DNA from: Bacteriovoracia bacterium
Lineage (GTDB): Bacteria > Bdellovibrionota > Bacteriovoracia > Bacteriovoracales > Bacteriovoracaceae
Assembly (NCBI GenBank): GCA_046570105.1
Contig: JBKHVI010000029.1
Span: 1 to 34,440, forward strand
Length of the DNA stretch: 34,440 nucleotides
Direction: 5' to 3'
Below the pieces are notes generated by a model. The model did not search any database. It saw only the letters and a list, made by a program, of their open reading frames with translations, and was not told the DNA's origin. This document shows, one piece after another, positions 2,028 to 34,440 of the stretch. Every line of letters begins with the position of its first letter. The first letter of the stretch is position 1. The position numbers and the translations under genes were made by a program.

Positions 2028-2954
2028 TTAGCGCCAGTGAAATTCCCACGCTTTGTGAATCCCTGAATCGGCAAAATCCGGCGGTACAGTCCAACGAGTA
2101 ATCTCTTTAGCTTCGGCTGCCAGCGCTGGATCGAGTTTGAATTTGCGCTTATTCGTTGAAAAGTAGAGTACGCCGCCAGCATTGAGGCGCTTGAGGCATT
2201 CTTCAATCAAAAAAACATGATCGCGCTCAATATCTAGGACATCTTCCATGCGCTTAGAATTTGAAAAGCTAGGCGGATCGAGCACGATAATATCAAAGCG
2301 CTCTTCAGGAATGTCTCTTAGCCATGCCACCACATCGGCCTGCAGGAATTTGTGATCCTGGTAGGGGATTTCATTCAATAGAAAATTGCGGCGGGCCCAT
2401 TGCAAATACGGATTCGACATATCTATCGACATCACACTTTGAGCGCCACCTTTGGCGGCGGCCACACTTAAGGAGCCGGTGTAACAGAATAGATTGAGCA
2501 CTTTTTTATTTTTAGCCGTTTTGAGTAATTCGCGACGCAAAGGGCGATGGTCAAGAAATAGTCCGGTATCAAGATATTTGCGCAGATTAATTTCAAAATA
2601 GAGCGGACCTTCCTGCACCGTGAAAGTTTCATCCGCCTTAGGGTCAATCACTTCGTATTGATCATGGCCTTTTTGGCGTTGTCGGCGTTTGATGATGATA
2701 TGTTCTTCAGGGATTTTTAAAAGATCGACCAGCGCTGCAATTGTTTCTGCGTGGTGACGCGCGACGAGTTCAGGAGCTTCTTCAACTTCGCGACCTTGGT
2801 CATAAAAGAGACAATAATTCTTGTATAAATCGATCAGGTAGGGAAATGAGGGAATATCTTGCGCATAAAGACGCCAAGCTTCCACGTTTTGCGCACGAAA
2901 TTGGCCCGACAAACGTCGATAATTCTTTTGCAGGCGGTTGGCTATTTCGGACAC
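2028..2954 (-). CDS. rlmK: 23S rRNA SAM-dependent methyltransferase, RlmK-like (C-terminal half of RlmKL; RlmI/K family)
   Basis: ANRLQKN start, YLDTGLFLDHR, VLNLFCYTGS, DPPSFSNSK, FSTN motifs; GTG start with AAGGA SD. Confidence 0.8.
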   Translation of the reverse strand: MSEIANRLQKNYRRLSGQFRAQNVEAWRLYAQDIPSFPYLIDLYKNYCLFYDQGREVEEAPELVARHHAETIAALVDLLKIPEEHIIIKRRQRQKGHDQYEVIDPKADETFTVQEGPLYFEINLRKYLDTGLFLDHRPLRRELLKTAKNKKVLNLFCYTGSLSVAAAKGGAQSVMSIDMSNPYLQWARRNFLLNEIPYQDHKFLQADVVAWLRDIPEERFDIIVLDPPSFSNSKRMEDVLDIERDHVFLIEECLKRLNAGGVLYFSTNKRKFKLDPALAAEAKEITRWTVPPDFADSGIHKAWEFHWR

Positions 2955-3010
2955 GTGTCAATCCTTTCGAAGTTTTGCTAATCTCCTTACTATACTCGAA
3001 GGGTGTAAAC

Positions 3011-3340
3011 ATGTCTGCAGACCATGATAGAGATGAAGATGGTAAAAGCGGCGTAGCTGTCGCACGCAAAGTAAAGCTTGAGCGTCCCAAGCCGTGGAAA
3101 GTGCTGCTGCATAATGATGACTACACCACCATGGAATTTGTGGTGCACATTTTGCAAAAATATTTTGCAAAGAGTCGCCCTGAAGCTCAAAGCATTATGC
3201 TGGAAGTCCACACGCGAGGATATGGCGTCTGTGGAATCTTCACCTTTGAAGTCGCTGAGTCAAAAAAAGAAAAAGTCATGAAATATGCCCGTGAAAACGG
3301 ACATCCCTTAAAATGTAGTATTGAACCTAACGAAGATTGA
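3011..3340 (+). CDS. clpS: ATP-dependent Clp protease adaptor ClpS
   Basis: VLLHNDDYTTMEFVV, MLEVH..G, HPLKC motifs; true start ATG 3011 lies inside track ORF 2741..3340; adjacent to clpA. Confidence 0.95.
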   Translation: MSADHDRDEDGKSGVAVARKVKLERPKPWKVLLHNDDYTTMEFVVHILQKYFAKSRPEAQSIMLEVHTRGYGVCGIFTFEVAESKKEKVMKYARENGHPLKCSIEPNED

Positions 3341-3421
3341 GACAAAGCTCAGTCACCCTTGCGTCTTTCAAAAGAGTGCCCATCCTAAAGATGTGGCCAC
3401 TTTTGCCTCAAAGGATTGTTT

Positions 3422-5761
3422 ATGATTAGTCCCCAACTTGAACTTATTCTCAACAAAGCTATTCGTAAGGCCAATGAACATAAGCATGAGTTCCTCACGC
3501 TAGAAAATGTTCTCTTGGCGATGCTGGAAGATGCCATGGTGGTTGATGTGCTTCGTGACTGCGGCGCTAAGCTTGATGAACTTCGCCGTGACTTAGAAGT
3601 TTTTATTGCGGATAAATCGAACTTTAGTCTACTGGCCGATGAGGATATTGAAGAACTCAATCAAAAGCAGTTCGGAAATGAGCAGCTCAGAGAAGCTGCT
3701 CGCGAAAATGGTATTCGTTATCAACCAGAAATTTCCATGGCCCTTCAGCGTGTGATTCAGCGTGCAGCTATCCATATTCAGAGTTCAGGTAAAAAAACCA
3801 TCCAGGCGATCAATCTCTTGGTCGCTCTTTTTAGTGAAAAAGAAAGTCATGCCATCTATTTCTTGAACAAACAGGGAGTCGAGCGCGTGGATGTGGTGGA
3901 AAAAATCGCTCATGGCACTGATCGCCCCAACACGCAGCCTGAAGAAGGCCGTGACAGTCAAGAAAATGACGGTCCGTTTAGAAAAGAAGAGAAGTTTGAG
4001 AAGGCCTTGGCCGATTTCACCGTCAATCTTAACGAAGAAGCGCGCCAGGGTCGCCTCGATCCTACCATTGGCCGCGCTGATGAGATCCAAAGAATTACTC
4101 AGATCCTTTGTCGCCGCCGTAAAAATAATCCCATTTTGGTGGGAGATGCCGGTGTGGGTAAAACAGCGATCGCTGAAGGTCTCGCCCAGGCCATCGTGGA
4201 TGGAAAAGTTCCAGGCCCCTTGGCGAAAACAACTGTCTATTCATTAGACATGGCCTCACTTCTTGCCGGCACTAAGTTCCGCGGTGATTTTGAAGAGCGC
4301 TTGAAGATAGTTTTGCAGGCGATGGAGAAAAAGAACTCCAAAGACGGCAGTATTCTCTTTATTGATGAGATTCACACCATAATTGGCGCTGGTGCCACCA
4401 GCGGAGGCAGCATGGATGCCTCCAATCTTTTGAAGCCTGCTCTCTCAAAGGGTCAGTTGCGTTGTATGGGCTCAACCACATTTGAGGAATATCGCAAATA
4501 TTTTGAGAAAGATGCCGCCCTCAATCGTCGATTCCAGAAAGTGGATGTACCTGAGCCATCGCTAGAAGACACTTATCAGATCCTCCAAGGCCTCAAGCCA
4601 CGCTTAGAAGAACATCACGGCGTGAAATATTCCGATGAAGTCGTCCAGACGGCGGTTAATCTGTCGCAGAAGCACATCAGCGACCGCAAGCTACCAGATA
4701 AGGCGATTGATGTGATGGATGAGTTGGGGGCCTATTTGCGCTTGAAAGCGGATTGGGTGCAAGGTCGTGAGGCCACCATCGCTGAAGCAGAGTACATCGT
4801 CGCTAAGATTGCGCGAATTCCAGAGAAAAGCGTTTCGGGTAATGAGCGTGAGAAGTTGCAGAATCTTGAGCGCGACCTCAAAATGCTCATCTTTGGTCAA
4901 AATGAGGCGATCGAGAAGGTCACGAACTCGATTATCATGTCACGCTCAGGCCTCGGCAACACCCAGAAGCCCATCGCCAGTTTCTTGTTTGCAGGTCCCA
5001 CCGGCGTCGGCAAAACAGAGCTTGCAAAACAACTCGCAATGCAGATGGGGGTCAATTTCTTGCGCCTCGATATGTCGGAGTACATGGAGAAGCACACTGT
5101 TTCGAAGCTTATTGGAGCACCTCCTGGATACGTAGGATTTGATCAAGGTGGCTCACTCACTGATGCTGTTCATAAGACGCCCTATACAGTCTTGTTGCTC
5201 GATGAAATCGAGAAAGCTCACTCTGATATCTACAATATTCTCTTGCAGGTGATGGATCATGGAGCACTGACAGATTCCAATGGACGCACCACTGATTTCC
5301 GCAACGTCATTTTAATTATGACCTCAAATGCCGGCGCTAAAGATATGGAAGCAGGCGCGATCGGACTGTCAGGAAAAGTGGGCGGTGAAATCAATACGGC
5401 CAAGCGCGATCAGGCGATCCGGCAATTTTTTACCCCCGAGTTTAGAAACCGTCTTGATGCCGTTATCCACTTCAATCGATTGAAGCCGATCAACGTTGAG
5501 GCCATCGTAGAAAAGTTCTTGATGGAGCTTGAAGGCCAGCTGTTGGAGAAAAAAGTAGAGCTTGAAGTCACTTCTGAGGCCCGCGCATGGTTAGCCCGTC
5601 ATGGTTTTGACGATAAATTGGGCGCAAGACCTGTTGGAAGACTTGTTGATGAGAAGATAAAGAAGCCTTTGGCCCATGAAATTCTCTTCGGTCGTCTCGA
5701 AAAAGGTGGTCGCGTGGTGGTTGATGAGGGTGCTGATGGACCTGTTTTCAAATTTTCCTAA
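3422..5761 (+). CDS. clpA: Clp protease ATP-binding subunit ClpA
   Basis: Clp N-domain, two AAA+ modules ([16 protein letters not shown]), IGL loop, no ClpB M-domain; AAGGA SD before ATG 3422. Confidence 0.95.
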
Positions 5762-23742: not shown

Positions 23743-23822
23743 GGGTTTATGCTCGCTTTTCCGATGGATTCAGTCATCTTAAAAACTCCCTCATGCGCGC
23801 TGCGCGATGGTACACTCAAACT

Positions 23823-24836
23823 ATGCTTTTTAAACCACTCAAATCAACAATAGTTATTGTCTTTTTTATTCTCCTCAACGCCTGGGTTGGCTATGGCGTT
23901 TGGACCCATCGAGCGGATGTGGATTGGGGAAATGATTCGAGTGCAGTGCTAGGAAAAGCACCTACTGAAATGAAAGAGTTGGAATACTTTCACTTAGATC
24001 TCGGCAGGCCTGCACTCTCTTTAGTCGCCGATGAAATGCACAGTGTGGGCGATGAAGTGGCGAGCTTCGTGCGTCCGCGCGGAACATATTCTCCCGATGA
24101 TAAGCGTGGCACTCTTCGCTATGAGGGACAACAAGCCGAGTACGTGAAAGCACGCGACACACTCAAACTTTTAGGGGCCGTGCAATTAGCTGAAGAGAAT
24201 TCCTCTTACCAGGCCGAAGAGCTGACGTATTACCTCAAAAAAGATTTGGTGGTGGGTAAGCGCGATGTGAAGGTCAAACATACTTTGCAAAAAACTGGCC
24301 AGGTAGTGAACATCACCTCCTTGAGTTTTAAGGCGCGACCCAAGCAAGACTGGGCAAGCTTTAAAGGCGAAGTCGATGGCGTAGTTACGCCGAAATTTAA
24401 GTTCCAGGCGCCCTTAGTTTTCCGCTCTCAAGAGATGGAATTAACGGGTAAAGAGGGACTGATCCAACTTAAGCATCAGGTCTATGTTAAGCGGGGAGAA
24501 ATGCAGATAACTGCCCGAAATGGTGACATTTTTCTTGAGCAGGCAAACAAAAAGCTCAAGTATTTCATTCTGAATGACGATGTGAAGGTGAAGGAAAACC
24601 TCGTGGATTCGAAGGGTCAGCCGCTCAAGCGTGAGGCCTATGCCGAAAGACTCGAAGGTTTTGGACAAGACCGTATGGTGCTCTCAGGAGCACCTCGTGT
24701 GTTGCAAGGAAAAGACGTGATCAAAGGCTATCGAATAACCATGCGTGAAAAAATGGAATTTATCGAAGTCGAAGATGCCATGTCAGATGTTCAAGTCAAA
24801 GAAGACGAGAGCAAAGATGCGAAGGAGCGCCGCTAA
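23823..24836 (+). CDS. LPS export periplasmic protein, LptC/LptA(OstA)-like multi-domain
   Basis: Single N-terminal TM then about 300 aa of beta-rich sequence; C-terminal LSGAPRVLQGKDVIKG.RI is LptA-like; TAATG-coupled to lptB; start 23823 vs 23793 uncertain. Confidence 0.75.
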   Translation: MLFKPLKSTIVIVFFILLNAWVGYGVWTHRADVDWGNDSSAVLGKAPTEMKELEYFHLDLGRPALSLVADEMHSVGDEVASFVRPRGTYSPDDKRGTLRYEGQQAEYVKARDTLKLLGAVQLAEENSSYQAEELTYYLKKDLVVGKRDVKVKHTLQKTGQVVNITSLSFKARPKQDWASFKGEVDGVVTPKFKFQAPLVFRSQEMELTGKEGLIQLKHQVYVKRGEMQITARNGDIFLEQANKKLKYFILNDDVKVKENLVDSKGQPLKREAYAERLEGFGQDRMVLSGAPRVLQGKDVIKGYRITMREKMEFIEVEDAMSDVQVKEDESKDAKERR

Positions 24837-27116: not shown

Positions 27117-27443
27117 ATGAATATAACCATCTCTTTCAAACATCTCGAACACACACCGGCGCTAGATGAGCGCATTCAAGAAAAATCAGAAAAACTAAAT
27201 AAGTTCTTTGGCGGCCAATTTAAAGTCCACTGGGTTTGCTGGTGCGACGAAAAAGGTGCTCACTGGGCCGAGATTAAAATCTCAGGTCAGCAGGAATGCT
27301 ACGCCAAGGCCCATGCAGACAATCTGTATAAGGCACTCGATCTAGTGGTCGAGAAAGCTGAACGTCAGTTAGAAAAACAAAAAAGTAAATTAAGAAACCG
27401 TGTCCATAATACGGAAGCCAATAAATATCGAAACGCTGGTTGA
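27117..27443 (+). CDS. hpf: ribosome hibernation promoting factor (short HPF/RaiA)
   Basis: MNITISFKHLEHTPAL...K..KL.KF, LYKALD....K.ERQL.K.K; GAGGA SD before ATG 27117; canonical position after rpoN. Confidence 0.92.
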   Translation: MNITISFKHLEHTPALDERIQEKSEKLNKFFGGQFKVHWVCWCDEKGAHWAEIKISGQQECYAKAHADNLYKALDLVVEKAERQLEKQKSKLRNRVHNTEANKYRNAG

Positions 27444-27445
27444 GT

Positions 27446-28336
27446 ATGCTCTCTCGCTGGTGGATTTATCTCAAGGAAATGTATCAACCGTCATCAAGGC
27501 TCTTATTTAGTGCCTTGATGACGTATCTCACCTGGAAACTTTGGCCAGGGGCCAAGCAGGAATTTCCTTGGATCCCGTTCATAGCGAGCACACTCACATT
27601 TGCACTGATGATTCTTTACTATCGCGTTTGCGATGAGTTTAAAGACGCAGACACTGATCGGCGCTTCTTCCCCGAGCGTCCAGTGCCATCAGGGCGGGTA
27701 ACTCTGAAAGACCTGCAGTATTTACGTCACACTGTTAGTGGAGTGGCGTTCTTACTGCAGGCCTTCATCCCTTATGCCTTCATTCCATTTTTGATTTTCT
27801 GGATATTCTCTTGGGGAATGGGGCGTTGGTTTTTCATGCCGAAACTGATTAGCGAAAATCGATTGTTAGCATTTCTAACCCATAGTCCTGTTGGTTTTAT
27901 TGGAGGGTTCTATTTACTCGCAGCGATGGTGCGAGATCATGGACCACTCATTTCCAGCACGAGTCTTGCTTTAATAGCAGTTCTCAATATTCCAGGTCTC
28001 GCCTGGGAGATTTTACGAAAAACTCGTTCACCCAAAGCTGAGCAAGAAGGCTACCAAACCTATTCACAGATACTAGGAACTGGCCCAGCTTTAACTCTTG
28101 CCGGCCTCTTTATCACTGCCACTCTGTTTCTATCAATTATGGTTGCACCCACTTGGGGATTGCCTGAGTGGACGATGACAGTCTTGTTGTCTGTGCATTT
28201 GGTGATATTAAGTCTTTTACCACTTATCTATGTGCGTTTAAAAAAACAGGCGCTCGAATTGCGCCTGTTGGGTGATATCTATAATGGCAGTGTGCTGCTT
28301 ATTCTACTTGTCGCGAGCTCAATGACAGTAGTCTAG
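27446..28336 (+). CDS. UbiA-family (prenyltransferase-like) membrane protein
   Basis: DEFKDADTDRRFFPERPVPSG Asp-rich motif, about 8 TM, degenerate second motif WEILRK....AEQEGYQTY. Confidence 0.8.
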   Translation: MLSRWWIYLKEMYQPSSRLLFSALMTYLTWKLWPGAKQEFPWIPFIASTLTFALMILYYRVCDEFKDADTDRRFFPERPVPSGRVTLKDLQYLRHTVSGVAFLLQAFIPYAFIPFLIFWIFSWGMGRWFFMPKLISENRLLAFLTHSPVGFIGGFYLLAAMVRDHGPLISSTSLALIAVLNIPGLAWEILRKTRSPKAEQEGYQTYSQILGTGPALTLAGLFITATLFLSIMVAPTWGLPEWTMTVLLSVHLVILSLLPLIYVRLKKQALELRLLGDIYNGSVLLILLVASSMTVV

Positions 28337-29740
28337 GCTGACTGTCGAGTTTGCGTCTCCGAGACGGTTTCCACGAGCATCAACCTTGTAGCAATAGCGT
28401 GCAGAAGTTCCGTAAGGGAAAGTAGCGTATCCAGCGGTACACTGATTGATGTCAATTGTGCTATTGGCATCTCCGAGACGATTGCCGTCTTTGTCGATAT
28501 TATAGCAATAACGTGCGCTCGTTCCGTAAGGGAAACTTGCTACGCCAGCGGTACAGTTTGACATTGATACGGTTGAATTAGCATCGCCCAATCGATTTCC
28601 ACGATCGTCAACTTTGTAGCAATAGCGAGCCGAGGTTCCATAAGCAAATGTAGCGAATCCAGCCGAACAGTAATCCATCGACACGGTTGAGTTAGCGTCG
28701 CCTAAGCGATTGCCTTGACGATCAACTTTGTAGCAATAGCGTGCTGAAGTTCCGTAGGCGAAGCTATTGTATCCGACTGCGCAGTAATCCATTGATACAG
28801 TTGAGTTGGCATCGCCTAAGCGATTACCTTGACGATCAACCTTGTAGCAATAGCGTGCAGCTGTGCCGTATCTGAATGAAGCGTAGCCGTTGTGAGCACT
28901 CGTACCAACATCGATTAATTCTTGTTCTACGGGAGGTGGAGTAACCACAACAGTGTTGTTTGATTGATTTTTTACTTCAATGACTTTAAGTGAATTTAAA
29001 CGACGAATCAGACGCAAGTTTGAGCGATCATCATTGAGAGGTAATTCTGGCATGTCTTGAAGCATCTCATGGGCCTCAACGATATGTTCTGCATAACGAG
29101 CAGCTTCAGCATCACGCGAGAGATCCCAGTTGACCATTTCTACTAGCTTGTAGAGCAAGCGGTACTGTGCGGTGGCATCTAGGACATTGATGACACCAGG
29201 GTACATGCCTTGCATGAAACTTGCGCCAAAACCGGCGTAAGATAGTTTGGTGGCAGTATCACCTGCTTGAGCACGACGTTGGAAGTTAAGATCTGATTCA
29301 TAGAAAGAAAGAGCAATTTGAATTGAACGTTGAATAATATCGAGGGCACTTTCTTGTGAGCCGATCTCTTCCATATCGACATTTTTCTCAAGCTCATCAA
29401 CTAAGAGCAGACCGCGATTAAGCGCGAAGCGCATGAACATCTGATATTGACGGCCCTCTGAGCGAGAAACGACAGAGCGTGCCGCGCGTTCAATATGCGA
29501 CAAGCGCTCACGCAAGGGAAGTGATTGTGATTGCTTTATTGCACGATTGAGTTGGTTCTGGGCATTTTGGGCCCAAGGGAGAAACTCAGCGACTTCTGCA
29601 TCAGTGAGTCGTGTGAGTGTGCCTTCAGCGAATTCACCACTCACAAGTTCAGTTGGTGCTGAGATTTCTGGAACAGAAATATCTGCGATGGCACTGAAGC
29701 TTAAAGTCAGTAACAGTGCTGGGATAATTAACTTTTTCAT
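28319..29740 (-). CDS. secreted protein: helical N-domain plus five 38-aa two-Cys repeats
   Basis: GGAG SD, signal peptide MKKLII...AIA, Pro/Thr/Val linker, repeats. Confidence 0.85.
   Translation of the reverse strand: MKKLIIPALLLTLSFSAIADISVPEISAPTELVSGEFAEGTLTRLTDAEVAEFLPWAQNAQNQLNRAIKQSQSLPLRERLSHIERAARSVVSRSEGRQYQMFMRFALNRGLLLVDELEKNVDMEEIGSQESALDIIQRSIQIALSFYESDLNFQRRAQAGDTATKLSYAGFGASFMQGMYPGVINVLDATAQYRLLYKLVEMVNWDLSRDAEAARYAEHIVEAHEMLQDMPELPLNDDRSNLRLIRRLNSLKVIEVKNQSNNTVVVTPPPVEQELIDVGTSAHNGYASFRYGTAARYCYKVDRQGNRLGDANSTVSMDYCAVGYNSFAYGTSARYCYKVDRQGNRLGDANSTVSMDYCSAGFATFAYGTSARYCYKVDDRGNRLGDANSTVSMSNCTAGVASFPYGTSARYCYNIDKDGNRLGDANSTIDINQCTAGYATFPYGTSARYCYKVDARGNRLGDANSTVSLDYCH
28322..28888 (-). 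repeat. 5 x 114-nt coding tandem repeat (GxxxFxYGTxARYCYxxDxxGNRLGDANSTxxxxxCxx)
   Basis: Period 114 nt, e.g. gtagcaatag at 28730 and 28844; last copy is 37 aa. Confidence 0.95.
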
Positions 29741-29764
29741 ATATAGCTCCAAAAATCTTTAATT

Positions 29765-30484
29765 CTAGTGATGAGTGAACTCTTTCATTGACCAGTTCGA
29801 GGTATCAATGAACACCATCTTGTCAGACCAGCTGAAACAGCCGCGCAAGAAAACCACCACGTAGCGTGATTCTTCCACCACTTCTACGCCCGTTGTTGTC
29901 AGTGTGCTCTTGAAAGCGAGGTGCATGCCTGGGCGAACTTCGCGAAGCACGTAGCTGCCTGCCATGTTGCCAGCAGAAATAGTTAATTGAGATTCACGGT
30001 TAGCGTCGGGTGGAGAAAGAGTCGTGCTCTTCTTGGCACCTTTGTAAGAGTAAGTTCCTGGTGTGTTTGGCAACCAAGGCATTGTCTCTTTTGAAGATTT
30101 GAAAACTTCAGCAATGTTGAAGCCGACGTTATTACCTGGGTTCGGTGCCATATTGATGCGCAACTTTGAGCCTTCAACAATCACACTTGCCGTGAGAGAG
30201 GGTGTGTAGTTGGAAGCACCGATGAGATTTTTTTGGTTATACAAAGGAATAAAACCGTAGCGGCCGATGGCGAATTCATCCACCAAGTAAGGCACCGCTT
30301 TTTCGCCGTCTTTAATGATTAAAGCAAGAAAACTTCCGTCGCGGCCTGGAAGATCGCGCACGAACATTTTAATGTCGCGTGATTGACCGTCATAAACACC
30401 GGCGCGAAGACCGGGTGTAAGAGTATTAGAATTTGCCAACGCAGCAGCGGTCAGCAGAACGTAACAAAGTAAGGCCTTAAACAT
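29765..30484 (-). CDS. secreted hypothetical beta-rich protein
   Basis: Signal peptide ending ALA; AAGGA SD; 24 nt upstream of the repeat-protein gene, probable operon. Confidence 0.8.
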   Translation of the reverse strand: MFKALLCYVLLTAAALANSNTLTPGLRAGVYDGQSRDIKMFVRDLPGRDGSFLALIIKDGEKAVPYLVDEFAIGRYGFIPLYNQKNLIGASNYTPSLTASVIVEGSKLRINMAPNPGNNVGFNIAEVFKSSKETMPWLPNTPGTYSYKGAKKSTTLSPPDANRESQLTISAGNMAGSYVLREVRPGMHLAFKSTLTTTGVEVVEESRYVVVFLRGCFSWSDKMVFIDTSNWSMKEFTHH

Positions 30485-30641
30485 AAGCGCATCCTTAAAA
30501 GAAGTTCAGATGCGATAATGTTAAGGGTTTAAAGAATTTTTCTGGGGTGAAGTGTAGGATTTATAGACCTAAAGTGCGGACTTTCAGTCAGCAATGGTCG
30601 TCAATTACGGAGCTAAGTACCTGAAACTCCTCTAGTTGCTT

Positions 30642-31235
30642 TTAGGAGTATTGGCCAAACAGAAATAAGCTGACAATTGCGTAGAGAATTAAATTAAACA
30701 AAGTTGTTACTCGAAGTATGAACAAAAACTGCGGGTCTTCTTTGGTGGCGTACCAAATTCCTTCTTCGCCCTTTGTTTTTTCTCTTACCAGTTTTAAGAA
30801 TGCGAAAGCATACCAAGTCTCGATACAAAGTGAGATCACCATGCCTAAGCTAAAGAGTTGAATCCACCAGCTGGCGAACATCAAACTTTGCCAGTGCCAA
30901 AGATAGCTACCAATCACGGCAGCAAGAGTGACCAAATCGTGGGTTATACCAATTTTTGGCGTCCAGTTTTTTGAAACAAAGAGCATATAGATTTCAGCAA
31001 ATCCTCTTATCCAAAAAGACAGTGTCAGAATGCCCCAGCCCCACCAAGCGGCCAGAGGCCAATCACCATGCATCAGAGTCAGTGGTGTGAGGAAGAACCA
31101 AACTGAAATAGTCCAATAAAGCCACAAAGCTTTTGAGATACTGATAGGTCCACCGAGCTTTATTCCACTGTTTTGGCGAAAGAACATCCACAAAGCGACT
31201 GGGATTGAGAGACATAAGTAAATCCAAAATAGCAT
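30642..31235 (-). CDS. hypothetical Trp-rich integral membrane protein (about 6 TM)
   Basis: GGGAG SD before ATG 31235; conserved-looking GGPISISK, NWTP..GI.HD and E..Y segments. Confidence 0.75.
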   Translation of the reverse strand: MLFWIYLCLSIPVALWMFFRQNSGIKLGGPISISKALWLYWTISVWFFLTPLTLMHGDWPLAAWWGWGILTLSFWIRGFAEIYMLFVSKNWTPKIGITHDLVTLAAVIGSYLWHWQSLMFASWWIQLFSLGMVISLCIETWYAFAFLKLVREKTKGEEGIWYATKEDPQFLFILRVTTLFNLILYAIVSLFLFGQYS

Positions 31236-31276
31236 TAACGCTCCCTTTCGTGCCCCACTCAAGAGTAGAATTCTTT

Positions 31277-32770
31277 ATGGGTTTGATTCAGTCTGGTGTC
31301 CATTTTAGCTTGCGTCAGTTAACGCGTAAAAGTCACGCGCAGTTTTTGAGCGAGCGTAAGAATTTACGTCAGACACAACTTGCTATCCTCAATCGTTTAT
31401 TAGGCGAATCAGAAAAGACAATTTGGGGGCAAGAAAAGGGAATTCGAAAGGGTTGGAGTTATTCTCAAATGCAATCAAAGCTTGCTCCAACCGATTGGCA
31501 TGAATGGAGTTCTTGGGTTGAGCGTGAAAAAAAAGTCTCATGCTCAATGTCGGTCGAGGTCACTCGCTATCAACCCACCAGTGGGTCAACTCATAAGCGT
31601 AAATGGATTCCTTACACTCGTTCATTCCTAAGTGAGATTGATCGCGCTACCGCCGTATGGATTCATGATCTCTACGAACAAAGTCCTGGCGTGAGAGAGG
31701 GCAAGCATTATTGGTCTCTGTCGTGGCTCCCGACTGAGCTTCGCCAAGAAATGAGTAATAACGATTTAGCTTATTTCCCGTGGCTGAAGCGCCTCTTCTT
31801 GGGTCAGGTCATGGCGATGGATGATTCTGTTCAAAGAGCAGAGACTTCAGATTTAGCTCGCCGACTTACCATTCAGAATCTGATTGAGTGCCGTGAGTTG
31901 AGTTTGATTTCAGTTTGGTCTCCCACTTTTCTATTGGGGATTTGTCATGATCTGTGGAGTGATAAATCTACTTATGCTCGAACTGCTTCTCAATCGACAC
32001 GGAGAATATTGCTGCAATCAAGTAATCTTGAAGAGTGTGTTAAACATCTTTGGCCCAAGCTCGCCTTGGTTAGCTGCTGGCAAACCGCTGATGCTGCTCA
32101 GTGGGCCAAAAAAACGCAGCAACTTTTTAGCGGCGTAGCTTTTCAAGGTAAAGGATTATTTGCCACCGAAGGAGTGGTGAGTATTCCGGTACAAGGCAAA
32201 ATGCATCTAGCGTACCAATCCCATTTTTATGAATTCGAGAAAAAAAATGGTGAGATCGTTCCCGCCTGGGAGCTAAAAGCTGGCGATGAAGTGACCGTAT
32301 TGATTTCTACAGGTAGTGGTCTGTGGCGCTATCGCATGGGAGATCGTGTCTTGGTTGTAGAGCTTGAAGATGGCTGTCCGATTTTGCAATTCTTAGGACG
32401 AGAGCATACGGTGGATATGGTGGGTGAGAAATTGTCATTTGATGCCGCTCGCGATGTGCTTAATAAGTTGGGCGAGAAAGCCATAATTATGCTGGCCTCA
32501 CCAGGTGATCCATCAGTAAAGCCCGGCTATGAAATAGTGTGGGAGGGAGTTGCTCCCGGAAATTTAGCTGAACGTGCCGAGATGCTTTTAAAAGAGCATC
32601 ATCACTATTTACTAGCACGAGAGCTCAATCAGTTGGCCCCTGCCAGAGTCAGAGAATGCACTAAGAGTGGAGAATTTTTTCAAAGCCTGGCCCGTGAGAT
32701 GAATTGGGTCTTAGGCGATATGAAATGGGAAGCTTTGATGAAGTTGCCAAAAAATTGGGAGAATGCCTAA
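31277..32770 (+). CDS. GH3-family adenylate-forming acyl-amide ligase
   Basis: PTSGST..K.IP.T, LFATEG, FYEF, GLWRYRMGD, F.GR......GEKL motifs; ATG 31277 avoids overlap with the divergent gene. Confidence 0.9.
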   Translation: MGLIQSGVHFSLRQLTRKSHAQFLSERKNLRQTQLAILNRLLGESEKTIWGQEKGIRKGWSYSQMQSKLAPTDWHEWSSWVEREKKVSCSMSVEVTRYQPTSGSTHKRKWIPYTRSFLSEIDRATAVWIHDLYEQSPGVREGKHYWSLSWLPTELRQEMSNNDLAYFPWLKRLFLGQVMAMDDSVQRAETSDLARRLTIQNLIECRELSLISVWSPTFLLGICHDLWSDKSTYARTASQSTRRILLQSSNLEECVKHLWPKLALVSCWQTADAAQWAKKTQQLFSGVAFQGKGLFATEGVVSIPVQGKMHLAYQSHFYEFEKKNGEIVPAWELKAGDEVTVLISTGSGLWRYRMGDRVLVVELEDGCPILQFLGREHTVDMVGEKLSFDAARDVLNKLGEKAIIMLASPGDPSVKPGYEIVWEGVAPGNLAERAEMLLKEHHHYLLARELNQLAPARVRECTKSGEFFQSLAREMNWVLGDMKWEALMKLPKNWENA

Positions 32771-33828
32771 TGGAGTCACTCTTAGAGCGCGATGGTTTGA
32801 TTGCACACAATTGGTATATCGCTTGTCTCTCTGTCGAAGTTAAGCCGGGCCAAGTCGTTCAACGTACAGTTTATGAAAAAGCCTTGGCAATTTTTCGAAC
32901 TGAAAGTGGAAGAGTTTCGGTTCTACCAGATCGCTGCCTTCATCGCTTGGCGCTTTTGTCACAGGGGGAAGTAAGAGGGGAGAGGCTCACTTGTATGTAT
33001 CACGGTTGGGAATATTCAACAGGTGGATCCGTCGAGAGAATTCCTTCCGAAGATCCTGATCAGCAAGACAGTAAAAAACATTGCTCGAAAGTTATACCTA
33101 GTGTGGAACAGGATGGTGCAATTTGGGTATGGATGGGGCCAGAAGCACCCATCACTGCGACACCTCCTTGGCGCTTTTCTTATGCTAATGATCCCGCATG
33201 GGAGCATTATTTTATGATCACGGATTTTCCCAATGAGGTGACGAACCTTGCTGAGAATTTTATGGATGTTCCTCATACGGTCTATGTTCATAAGGGATGG
33301 TTTCGTGATGAAAAAGCTGATCGAAAAAAAATCCCTCATACCGTTGAAACTCAAAATGGGCGAGTGCTAGTCACTTATCTGCAAAAAGAAGATGAGTTTT
33401 CGTGGGGAGCTAAACTATTGCTAAATCCTCATGGGGCCCCCATGCTTCACACGGATGAATATATTTACCCCAATATCACGCGGGTAGATTATATCTTTGG
33501 CAAGAACGGTTTTGTGATCAACTCACAAGGTACGCCTGTAGGTGCGCTCAACTCTCGCGTGTATACATATATCGCTTATAAAATTCCGTTCTTTAAAAAA
33601 TTATTGAAGCCACTTTTTGGTTTTTATACTCGCCAGGTGATCGAACAAGATGTCGAGATCATGCACAATCAAGGATCATCACTTCGACTGGATGGAACGT
33701 TGGCATTTCGGTCTACTCCTTGTGATGAGCTACATATCCAGATCGAGCGGTTGAGATCTTACGGCAAGACGGGAAATCCGTTGTTACAAAGCTTTACCGC
33801 CAAAAAAGAGATTAATTTTTGGATCTAG
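32770..33828 (+). CDS. Rieske non-heme iron oxygenase alpha subunit (VanA/KshA-like class)
   Basis: CLH-x16-CMYH Rieske motif; ENFMDVPHTVYVH plus EQD mononuclear Fe ligands; TAATG overlap with the GH3 gene. Confidence 0.92.
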   Translation: MESLLERDGLIAHNWYIACLSVEVKPGQVVQRTVYEKALAIFRTESGRVSVLPDRCLHRLALLSQGEVRGERLTCMYHGWEYSTGGSVERIPSEDPDQQDSKKHCSKVIPSVEQDGAIWVWMGPEAPITATPPWRFSYANDPAWEHYFMITDFPNEVTNLAENFMDVPHTVYVHKGWFRDEKADRKKIPHTVETQNGRVLVTYLQKEDEFSWGAKLLLNPHGAPMLHTDEYIYPNITRVDYIFGKNGFVINSQGTPVGALNSRVYTYIAYKIPFFKKLLKPLFGFYTRQVIEQDVEIMHNQGSSLRLDGTLAFRSTPCDELHIQIERLRSYGKTGNPLLQSFTAKKEINFWI

Positions 33829-34440
33829 CGCAATTTTTTCTGAAGTACCCTGAAGTGAGATTAGCCAAATCAGTGGAAGTGGACGAAAAAGTGCGTACAT
33901 TTTTTCACCAAGCACCTATGACCGGTAAAGGCATGCAATTGCTTTACTGGCGTGAACCTACTTTTAAGGCTTTTCTCGACTGTCATTCAGATCGCTCTTT
34001 TGTTTTTTTTGTAGAATCTCCAGAGGGAGATATTGAAGGAGCTGGCACAATTGTCATCCGGCCAGCGATGGTAAATGGCAAGCGTGAGATGGTAGGATAC
34101 TTAGGTGATCTGCGAGTGGATAATATTCGTCGCTGGGGCCGCTACTGGCGAAATTTTTATTTTGATCTTATGAAAGCGGCACCTCATATCGAAGAATTTG
34201 GCGGAGCTCGCTTTTACTATACAGCGATTCTTCATCAAAATACCAAGGCCCGCAAAGCCTTGGGTGAATCAAAAATTGGTTATCACCCTTATCATCAATA
34301 CCAAATGGTGAATGTGCTCAAACAATGGGCGCCAGTCTTTGATAAGTTTGCGACAAAAACGTGGAACGATCTCCCTTTGTCCGAACTTGAAAAATTCTAT
34401 CGCTTGAGTAATCTTGAGAAACCCTTGGGATGGGTGATTG
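33819..34440 (+). CDS. GNAT-like acyltransferase, 5' part (runs off window end)
   Basis: Open frame from TTG 33819 (or GTG 33855) to the end: ...YWREPTF...AMVNGKREMVGYLGDLRV...YTAILHQNTKARKAL; not in ORF track; overlaps the Rieske stop. Confidence 0.7.
   Translation, partial: MDLAQFFLKYPEVRLAKSVEVDEKVRTFFHQAPMTGKGMQLLYWREPTFKAFLDCHSDRSFVFFVESPEGDIEGAGTIVIRPAMVNGKREMVGYLGDLRVDNIRRWGRYWRNFYFDLMKAAPHIEEFGGARFYYTAILHQNTKARKALGESKIGYHPYHQYQMVNVLKQWAPVFDKFATKTWNDLPLSELEKFYRLSNLEKPLGWVI

Follow-up and report, generated by a model that had tools for sequence, protein, structure and literature searches.

A GH3-family ligase operon with a Rieske oxygenase and a predicted tandem GNAT in a Bacteriovoracia genome: conserved core, variants and possible products

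What might be made by an operon that joins a GH3-family ligase to a Rieske oxygenase and a putative acyltransferase? Such an operon lies at the end of a 34,440-nucleotide stretch of a Bacteriovoracia bacterium (GCA_046570105.1, contig JBKHVI010000029.1, positions 1 to 34,440), referred to below as the window. By its homologues and related loci the organism is a relative of the Bacteriovoracia/Bacteriovoracaceae, in the Bdellovibrionota. The initial annotation of this DNA, made from the sequence alone, described three tightly coupled genes with overlaps at 32770 and at 33819-33828, regarded the third as truncated, and expected the genes to co-occur in other genomes. The open reading frames (ORFs) and the raw sequence agree on both overlaps, the ORF that starts at TTG 33819 leaves the window with 207 amino acids present, and the same genes recur together in related loci. 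The operon and the gene divergent from it are as follows.

31277-32770, + strand: putative acyl-acid amido synthetase of the GH3 family, 497 amino acids (ORF listing, Pfam, motifs)
32770-33828, + strand: Rieske non-haem-iron oxygenase, 352 amino acids (ORF listing, Pfam, ligand conservation)
33819-34440, + strand: predicted tandem-GNAT acyltransferase (tGNAT), the 5' 207 codons of a protein of about 373 amino acids (orthologue identity, predicted fold)
30642-31235, - strand: memb206, a multi-pass membrane protein of about 197 amino acids and no known family (ORF listing)

The GH3, Rieske and tGNAT genes are translationally coupled. The TAA stop of the GH3 gene (32768-32770) shares its final A with the Rieske ATG (TAATG at 32768-32772), and tGNAT starts at TTG 33819, 10 nucleotides ahead of the Rieske stop (33826-33828), and runs off the window end. 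Close homologues have a length of 497 amino acids at 100% coverage, which makes ATG 31277 the likely start of GH3. The order GH3, Rieske, tGNAT is kept in 10 related loci, and the Rieske/tGNAT overlap is exactly 10 nucleotides in nine of the 11 adjacent pairs, the window included, the other two having a 24-nucleotide gap. Where GH3 and tGNAT are directly adjacent, they overlap by 4 nucleotides in 26 of 58 pairs. Promoter and terminator counts in 30400-34440 were no higher than in shuffled sequences. The Rfam and tRNA scan of the window gave no family at gathering score and no tRNA, and PADLOC gave no defence-system match for seven proteins.

A conserved core around the GH3 ligase

A GH3 scan of 185,579 species genomes (one per species) returned 380 stretches with a GH3 relative, and the best 80 of these 380 were analysed. 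ORFs in the 80 loci (longest-ORF calls, some with over-extended starts) were clustered by all-against-all BLASTP, and presence was tabulated per locus, giving 81 sources with the window; several of the absences in this table are contig ends.

The conserved core consists of a GNAT (c2, about 260 amino acids), the GH3 ligase and the tandem GNAT, and is found in many Pseudomonadota and Bdellovibrionota, usually near tripartite efflux-pump genes. tGNAT is present in 76 of the 81 sources and c2 in 70, followed by an RND permease (40), a membrane-fusion protein (38) and c10, a protein of about 320 amino acids (27). The Rieske gene was identified in 13 sources, plus a 92-amino-acid fragment at the end of L061. 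Two further families occur in seven sources each, namely memb206 (the window, L001, L003, L004, L005, L035 and L057) and an RnfD-like/FG-GAP protein, here called ORF4.

The usual order in Pseudomonadota is c2-GH3-tGNAT(-c10)-pump. In the clade of the window (L003, L004 and L005) it is memb206(divergent)-GH3-Rieske-tGNAT-ORF4-c2, and in L002, whose GH3 is 89% identical to that of the window, a tGNAT of 373 amino acids is directly followed by an ORF4 gene of more than 747 amino acids. Given this synteny in L002, L003, L004 and L005, ORF4 and c2 almost certainly follow as further genes of the operon beyond the window. The possibility that it runs on, raised in the initial annotation, is thus borne out by its relatives, with ORF4 next in L002 and c2 after it in L003, L004 and L005.

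ORF4 (L003:13658-16468; L002:2966-5206) has an N-terminal RnfD/NqrB-like membrane domain (NQR2_RnfD_RnfE, 47.6 bits) followed by FG-GAP repeats and ASPIC/UnbV, and was found only in Rieske-bearing loci (L001, L002, L003, L004, L005, L035 and L057). memb206 and GH3 are divergent, with starts 41 nucleotides apart. The longest memb206 ORF opens at TTG 31262; we placed the start at 31235 because the Atlas sequence begins at residue 10. memb206 had no Pfam, NCBIfam or PADLOC match, and its co-location with the cluster, in loci that are all Rieske-bearing, suggests a part in the pathway. Atlas look-alikes of both memb206 and c2 fall in clusters without a name, the nearest named one for c2 being a GNAT family at 0.91, a lead only.

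The Rieske gene is a Bdellovibrionota-specific addition to the c2-GH3-tGNAT core. In a quick IQ-TREE phylogeny of GH3, made from 80 rows without the truncated L002, all 65 Pseudomonadota rows fall into a single supported clade (Shimodaira-Hasegawa-like approximate likelihood ratio test 97), and none of them has a Rieske gene within 10 kb. The Rieske-bearing loci are all Bdellovibrionota-like, and L018 and L043 carry no Rieske gene. The GH3-Rieske-GNAT operon that had been proposed from the sequence is real and conserved, but its Rieske gene stands outside the core (13 of 81 sources, 0 of 65 in Pseudomonadota). Within the lineage the gene stays in the cluster despite reshuffling, as in L035 (ORF4-Rieske-tGNAT-GH3), L006 (c2-Rieske-GH3) and L057 (GH3-Rieske-memb206). 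Its insertion is an example of a tailoring step slotted into a fixed core.

Further variants were found by tblastn of a plasmid collection. Two 4-Mb records of Acinetobacter baumannii encode consecutively HlyD-like, MFS, c2, GH3, TolC-like and tGNAT proteins, so that the parts of a complete tripartite pump are interspersed with the core enzymes. One of them (L081, NZ_CP104448.1) is a 4.09-Mb record filed as a plasmid, the size of which suggests a mislabelled chromosome. An IncF plasmid of Citrobacter portucalensis (L082, NZ_CP134684.1, 51417-60726) encodes a c2-like protein, GH3, two radical SAM proteins, a tGNAT-like N-acetyltransferase, two more radical SAM proteins and a PAP2 phosphatase; the last shares 39% identity with a gene found at the edge of the Bdellovibrio locus L035. 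The C-H-activating enzyme between the ligase and the tandem GNAT thus differs by lineage, being Rieske here and radical SAM in Citrobacter. The Citrobacter radical SAM genes occupy the Rieske position, and a radical SAM fusion occurs in a member of the tGNAT family (P0366, see below).

The encoded enzymes

The GH3 protein matches the Pfam N-terminal domain (PF03321, 72.4 bits) and the central domain GH3_M (PF23571, 52.5 bits; cutoffs 23.6). Inspection matched the three nucleotide-binding motifs to TSGSTHKRK, LFATE and GLWRYRMGD, for which the AtGH3.11 counterparts are SSGTSQGRPK, YGSSE and GLYRYRLGD (PMC12493201). T101-S-G-S ... K109, K292-G ... A296-T-E298 and R351-Y ... D356 are invariant in 22 GH3 homologues. 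The closest solved relatives by sequence are JAR1 (E 4.4e-5) and GH3.6 (about E 4e-5), and the alignment to JAR1 reaches into the C-terminal part, up to residue 423. The Pfam C-terminal domain (PF23572) was not reported for the window protein and was precomputed on some homologues only. As judged from its sequence, the protein is a putative adenylate-forming, ATP-dependent amide ligase.

It shares the N-terminal and central Pfam domains with the plant GH3 proteins JAR1, GH3.5 and GH3.6, and its third motif is close to the plant GLYRYRLGD (PMC12493201). It differs from them in length (497 against 575-620 amino acids), in that the Pfam C-terminal domain is undetected, and in its place in a bacterial operon, a link to plant hormones not being expected in a predatory bacterium.

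Bacterial GH3 proteins had been called largely uncharacterised in the initial annotation, which no longer wholly holds. OlsH of Singulisphaera acidiphila is a bacterial GH3 that forms N-acyl ornithine from a free fatty acid with ATP and Mg2+, a step that is followed by an O-acyltransferase step (PMC12493201). With function known for OlsH alone among bacterial GH3 proteins, precedent is scarce. By its score against the OlsH equivalog model (NF052613), the window GH3 is not an OlsH equivalog, reaching 17.3 bits against a cutoff of 620 over residues 328-389, the motif-3 region; the GH3 of a Thalassolituus clade member had no NCBIfam match.

OlsH/OlsI is the nearest characterised system to the window cluster, and the two are alike in having a bacterial GH3 in an operon with one or more acyltransferases and in the presence of the three nucleotide-binding motifs (PMC12493201). 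By analogy, an ATP-dependent, coenzyme A (CoA)-independent N-acylation of an amino acid by a free fatty acid would be expected, followed by a second acylation. They differ in the partners, which in the window cluster are of the GNAT fold whereas OlsI is an alpha/beta-hydrolase O-acyltransferase, and in that the window cluster adds the Rieske oxygenase and ORF4, with efflux pumps recurring as neighbours. No OlsI-type alpha/beta-hydrolase was found in the window or the Bdellovibrionota loci. The Marinobacter locus L049 has an alpha/beta-hydrolase, but it is accompanied by a lipase chaperone. We also considered the stieleriacine/N-acyl-tyrosine pathway as a match and rejected it, since it uses an N-acyl amino acid synthase and not a GH3 (PMC12479983).

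The Rieske protein matches the Rieske domain (PF00355, 75.3 bits, cutoff 20.3) and VanA_C (32.5 bits, cutoff 23.5). In 12 Rieske sequences the [2Fe-2S] ligands C56, H58, C75 and H78 (CxH...CxxH) and the mononuclear-iron motif N163, D166, H169, H174 and D294 are invariant; we take the latter five to act as iron ligands by analogy with solved relatives. The protein appears from these features to be an alpha-only oxygenase with a VanA-type catalytic domain. Its closest solved relatives are SxtT (E 9.5e-20), SxtDIOX, DdmC, NdmA and KshA, with significant alignment over residues 8-183, roughly the first half. With these and SdmA, alpha-only VanA-type enzymes that are monooxygenases, demethylases or hydroxylases needing a separate reductase, it has in common the two-domain architecture and the ligands of the Rieske cluster and the mononuclear iron. 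It differs from them in its genomic setting, the gene being flanked by those of an amide ligase and an acyltransferase. Among NCBIfam models the best was SdmA 4beta-methylsterol monooxygenase (NF052579), at 69.1 bits against a cutoff of 600, and the relatives at 50% identity or above, which number more than 100 and come from Bdellovibrionota, bear generic names only. Of the three window proteins the Rieske is the highest in conservation (in L008, Rieske 60%, GH3 38% and tGNAT 37% identical). As the initial annotation had stated, the window holds no reductase or ferredoxin gene; a Pfam scan of its 44 ORFs detected no such domain.

"GNAT" cannot be read from family models for the third gene, because the window fragment has no Pfam or NCBIfam match; the L002 orthologue is likewise without a Pfam GNAT or N-myristoyltransferase (NMT) match above threshold. 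The window fragment is 88% identical to the first 207 amino acids of the 373-amino-acid L002 orthologue and 94% identical to P0294. GNAT-model matches of its relatives are sub-threshold, apart from two distant family representatives that just reach Acetyltransf_1 (22.3 and 20.8 bits against 20.7). An AlphaFold2 model of the L002 protein, built with 36 family members in the alignment, has a predicted local distance difference test score (pLDDT) of 93.6 and a predicted template-modelling score of 0.90. Foldseek against PDB placed N-myristoyltransferases first (8hbs, E 2.5e-12, template-modelling (TM) score 0.59), followed by the tandem GNAT MAB_4324 (7q3a, E 8e-11) and GlmA; the model had 246 PDB matches at E<=0.001, and among the top matches listed all are GNAT or tandem-GNAT proteins. 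By this confident fold prediction we assign the third gene to the tandem GNATs, as a family without a Pfam model. The earlier label of GNAT stands at the level of the fold, with two GNAT domains in the model, and finds no match among family models.

The likeness of the model to N-myristoyltransferase and to the tandem GNATs (MAB_4324/Eis-like, GlmA) is a two-GNAT fold over the full length of tGNAT (TM 0.55-0.60, E 2.5e-12 to 1e-9), at a sequence identity of about 10%. tGNAT had no NMT Pfam match, and the structural alignments have 9-12% identity, neither of which indicates membership of the N-myristoyltransferases. The acyl-CoA pyrophosphate-binding motif of GNATs is Q/R-x-x-G-x-G/A, and the sequence that follows the equivalent of strand 4 in tGNAT (RRWGRY in the window, RGGR as family consensus) matches it only in part. 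A library clustered at 50% identity contains 1,964 representatives of the family at E<=1e-30, mostly named "hypothetical protein" at source. A Rosetta-stone fusion of tGNAT with GH3 was not found; the 817-amino-acid representative P0366 carries instead a B12-binding and radical SAM N-terminal part ahead of a full tandem-GNAT domain (residues 449-817), and P0357 has no c2-like extra domain.

The model of c2 (pLDDT 90.2) is predicted to have a single GNAT domain with a helical extension, and in structure it is closest to AAC(2')-Ia (E 5e-6), with NatD and ElaA next. In c10 an HxxxDG motif is invariant, which we read as a condensation/PapA5-type signature, and seven of 18 members weakly match PapA_C; c10 is probably, on weak evidence, an acyltransferase of that type. 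Profiles of c2, tGNAT and c10 against PDB sequences gave nothing significant, the best being the GNAT BH1408 for tGNAT (E 0.013).

Possible products of the cluster

An acyl-amide product can reasonably be inferred from the operon. Beyond this, we tentatively propose, as the best of the readings considered here, that the cluster makes a fatty amide, oxygenated and bearing several acyl groups, for export or for the envelope. As OlsH and the plant GH3 proteins do, GH3 would adenylate a carboxylic acid in its free form, a fatty acid being the likeliest, with no use of CoA, and would then couple it to an amine group provided by an amino acid or diamine. The two GNAT-fold enzymes, c2 and tGNAT, would acylate the remaining amines or hydroxyls from acyl-CoA or acyl carrier protein thioesters. 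In the lineage of the window the Rieske oxygenase, fed by a reductase encoded elsewhere, would hydroxylate or desaturate the intermediate, and its placement between ligase and tGNAT would fit the formation of a hydroxyl that tGNAT then acylates. The resulting amide lipid, resembling a lipoamino acid, would be exported or put in the envelope. The recurrent efflux-pump neighbours, which the initial annotation did not include, point to an exported product; besides the A. baumannii operon, HlyD and MFS genes follow tGNAT in Pseudomonas, and an RND/OEP system lies upstream in L029. Genes suggestive of a lipid context are a fatty-acid hydroxylase adjoining memb206 in L003, two fatty-acid desaturases upstream in L035, a lipase, a lipase chaperone and an AraC regulator upstream in the Marinobacter locus L049, and the PAP2 phosphatase shared by L035 and the Citrobacter plasmid variant.

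Several points weigh against this proposal. Each of the lipid-context genes occurs in one or few loci only. The window GH3 is far from OlsH (17.3 bits against the cutoff of 620), the GNAT assignments of tGNAT and c2 come from predicted folds with about 10% identity to solved structures, and the closest solved Rieske relatives act on saxitoxin, dicamba, methylxanthines and steroids, not on fatty amides. Oxygenation appears dispensable for the core chemistry, because all 65 Pseudomonadota loci are without the Rieske gene. A reductase or ferredoxin is absent from the window and not conserved in related loci, and none was detected among the neighbours scanned in L003, L005, L008, L029 and L035.

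A wider claim, which we consider doubtful, is that the c2-GH3-tGNAT core is an undescribed CoA-independent route that leads from free fatty acids to a new class of exported amide lipids with several acyl groups, which would act as surfactant, signal or lipid of the outer envelope and would be diversified by the swappable C-H-activating slot. The taxa concerned would be oil-degrading marine bacteria, Aquabacterium, Pseudomonas, Acinetobacter baumannii and predatory Bdellovibrionota. In a bolder form of this claim, the N-myristoyltransferase-like protein would lipidate a peptide or protein. While the enzyme families are ordinary, their combination, breadth and swappable tailoring slot are not described. 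On bacterial GH3 proteins or this clade in the carrier genera our literature searches found the OlsH paper, its follow-up review (PMC12971839) and an in-silico target list for A. baumannii that names the gene (PMC5997985), and nothing else; no study of this clade or of its partner genes turned up, and no report of aminolipids in Bdellovibrio and Bacteriovorax was found. Should the core make an acyl-amide for export, this would be a new pathway to a lipid or biosurfactant, and would bear on oil-degrading bacteria, on the envelope and efflux biology of a hospital pathogen and on the handling of prey fatty acids by predators. Its spread is wide, with 380 GH3-relative stretches among the 185,579 species genomes and 1,964 tGNAT-family representatives.

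An unlikely alternative, and the one that survives best, is that the cluster detoxifies by conjugation and efflux. GH3 and the GNATs would link surplus or toxic carboxylic acids, whether free fatty, naphthenic or aromatic, with amino acids, and the pump would expel the conjugates, the Rieske oxygenase pre-oxidising the acid, in parallel with the inactivation of hormones by plant GH3 proteins. No neighbours are commoner than the pump genes (an RND permease in 40 of the 81 sources and a membrane-fusion protein in 38, the HlyD and MFS genes of Pseudomonas, the TolC-like gene within the A. baumannii operon). The carriers are enriched in Alcanivorax, Thalassolituus, Oleispira, Marinobacter and Aquabacterium, which we take to be hydrocarbon or lipid degraders, and predatory Bdellovibrionota meet large amounts of prey fatty acid, which also counts for this alternative. 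However, three or four dedicated acyl-transfer enzymes (c2, tGNAT and c10) exceed the needs of simple conjugation, no catabolic or ring-cleavage genes are conserved nearby, and dedicated exporters accompany biosynthetic clusters equally.

It is improbable that the product is a siderophore-like or other secreted chelator or signal made by logic independent of nonribosomal peptide synthetases, with GH3 as amide synthetase, the GNATs acylating amines as in aerobactin-type pathways and the Rieske oxygenase hydroxylating. Siderophore-like clusters generally combine an amide ligase and acyltransferases with an oxygenase and an exporter, and a gene for a TonB-dependent receptor directly follows c2 in L003. 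This receptor is found in one locus only, though, most carriers have just the three core enzymes, and among the gene clusters common to at least six loci there was neither a conserved ABC system for uptake nor an N-hydroxylase, a decarboxylase or an aminotransferase.

Acylation of a peptide or protein at its N-terminus or a side chain, in which tGNAT would act like an N-myristoyltransferase and GH3 would supply or ligate the acyl group, we consider quite improbable. The best structural matches of the tGNAT model are N-myristoyltransferases, the Citrobacter plasmid variant has four radical SAM genes, and a PqqD-domain protein is encoded 1.7 kb downstream in L005. Yet TM scores of 0.55-0.60 at about 10% identity indicate the fold only, and small-molecule tandem GNATs (7q3a, 5kf1) score nearly equal. 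Within 1.2 kb of the core no ORF of 25-90 amino acids is conserved across lineages; those small ORFs that do recur are shadows of adjacent genes or limited to close relatives.

Least probable of all, and disfavoured, is a catabolic pathway for aromatic acids, which the source name of the Rieske homologues ("aromatic ring-hydroxylating dioxygenase subunit alpha") and the VanA_C and DdmC-type similarity (demethylase or hydroxylase chemistry on aromatic acids) would suggest, but such names are family labels of a generic kind, the partner genes encode exporters and acyltransferases of a biosynthetic type, and no beta subunit, reductase, ring-cleavage or downstream catabolic genes were found in the window or related loci.

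Other genes in the window

Between hpf and memb206, positions 27440-30484 encode a UbiA-like prenyltransferase (39 bits in Pfam; 126 bits against a cutoff of 443 for NCBIfam PRK13592), a protein of 477 amino acids and one of 239 amino acids without a family. The initial annotation had suggested looking for recurrent co-occurrence of UbiA with GH3. BLASTP with the window UbiA returned no homologue in the 80 loci, and in L001, the closest locus with an upstream flank, the UbiA block is lacking and hpf lies directly beside memb206; we therefore rejected a link between UbiA and the operon. The block looks like a variable insertion site, absent in L001 and with the fatty-acid hydroxylase in its place in L003.

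The C-terminal part of the 477-amino-acid protein (28319-29752, - strand) consists of about five Cys-containing repeats of about 38 amino acids (YGTSARYCYKVD..GNRLGDANSTVS..), encoded in a 114-nucleotide tandem array at 28503-28860. Its Thyroglobulin_1 match is sub-threshold only, and a 65%-identical homologue is present at the edge of L004.

Further upstream, an ORF of 347 amino acids (23793-24836, + strand) has an LptC-related region (residues 35-195) and an LptA/LptD_N region (residues 212-321), lies upstream of lptB, rpoN and hpf, and may be a fused LptC-LptA. An ordinary ClpS-ClpA pair is encoded at 2741-3340 and 3416-5761 (+ strand); the true start of ClpS is probably later than that of the longest ORF, because the ClpS domain covers its residues 115-193.

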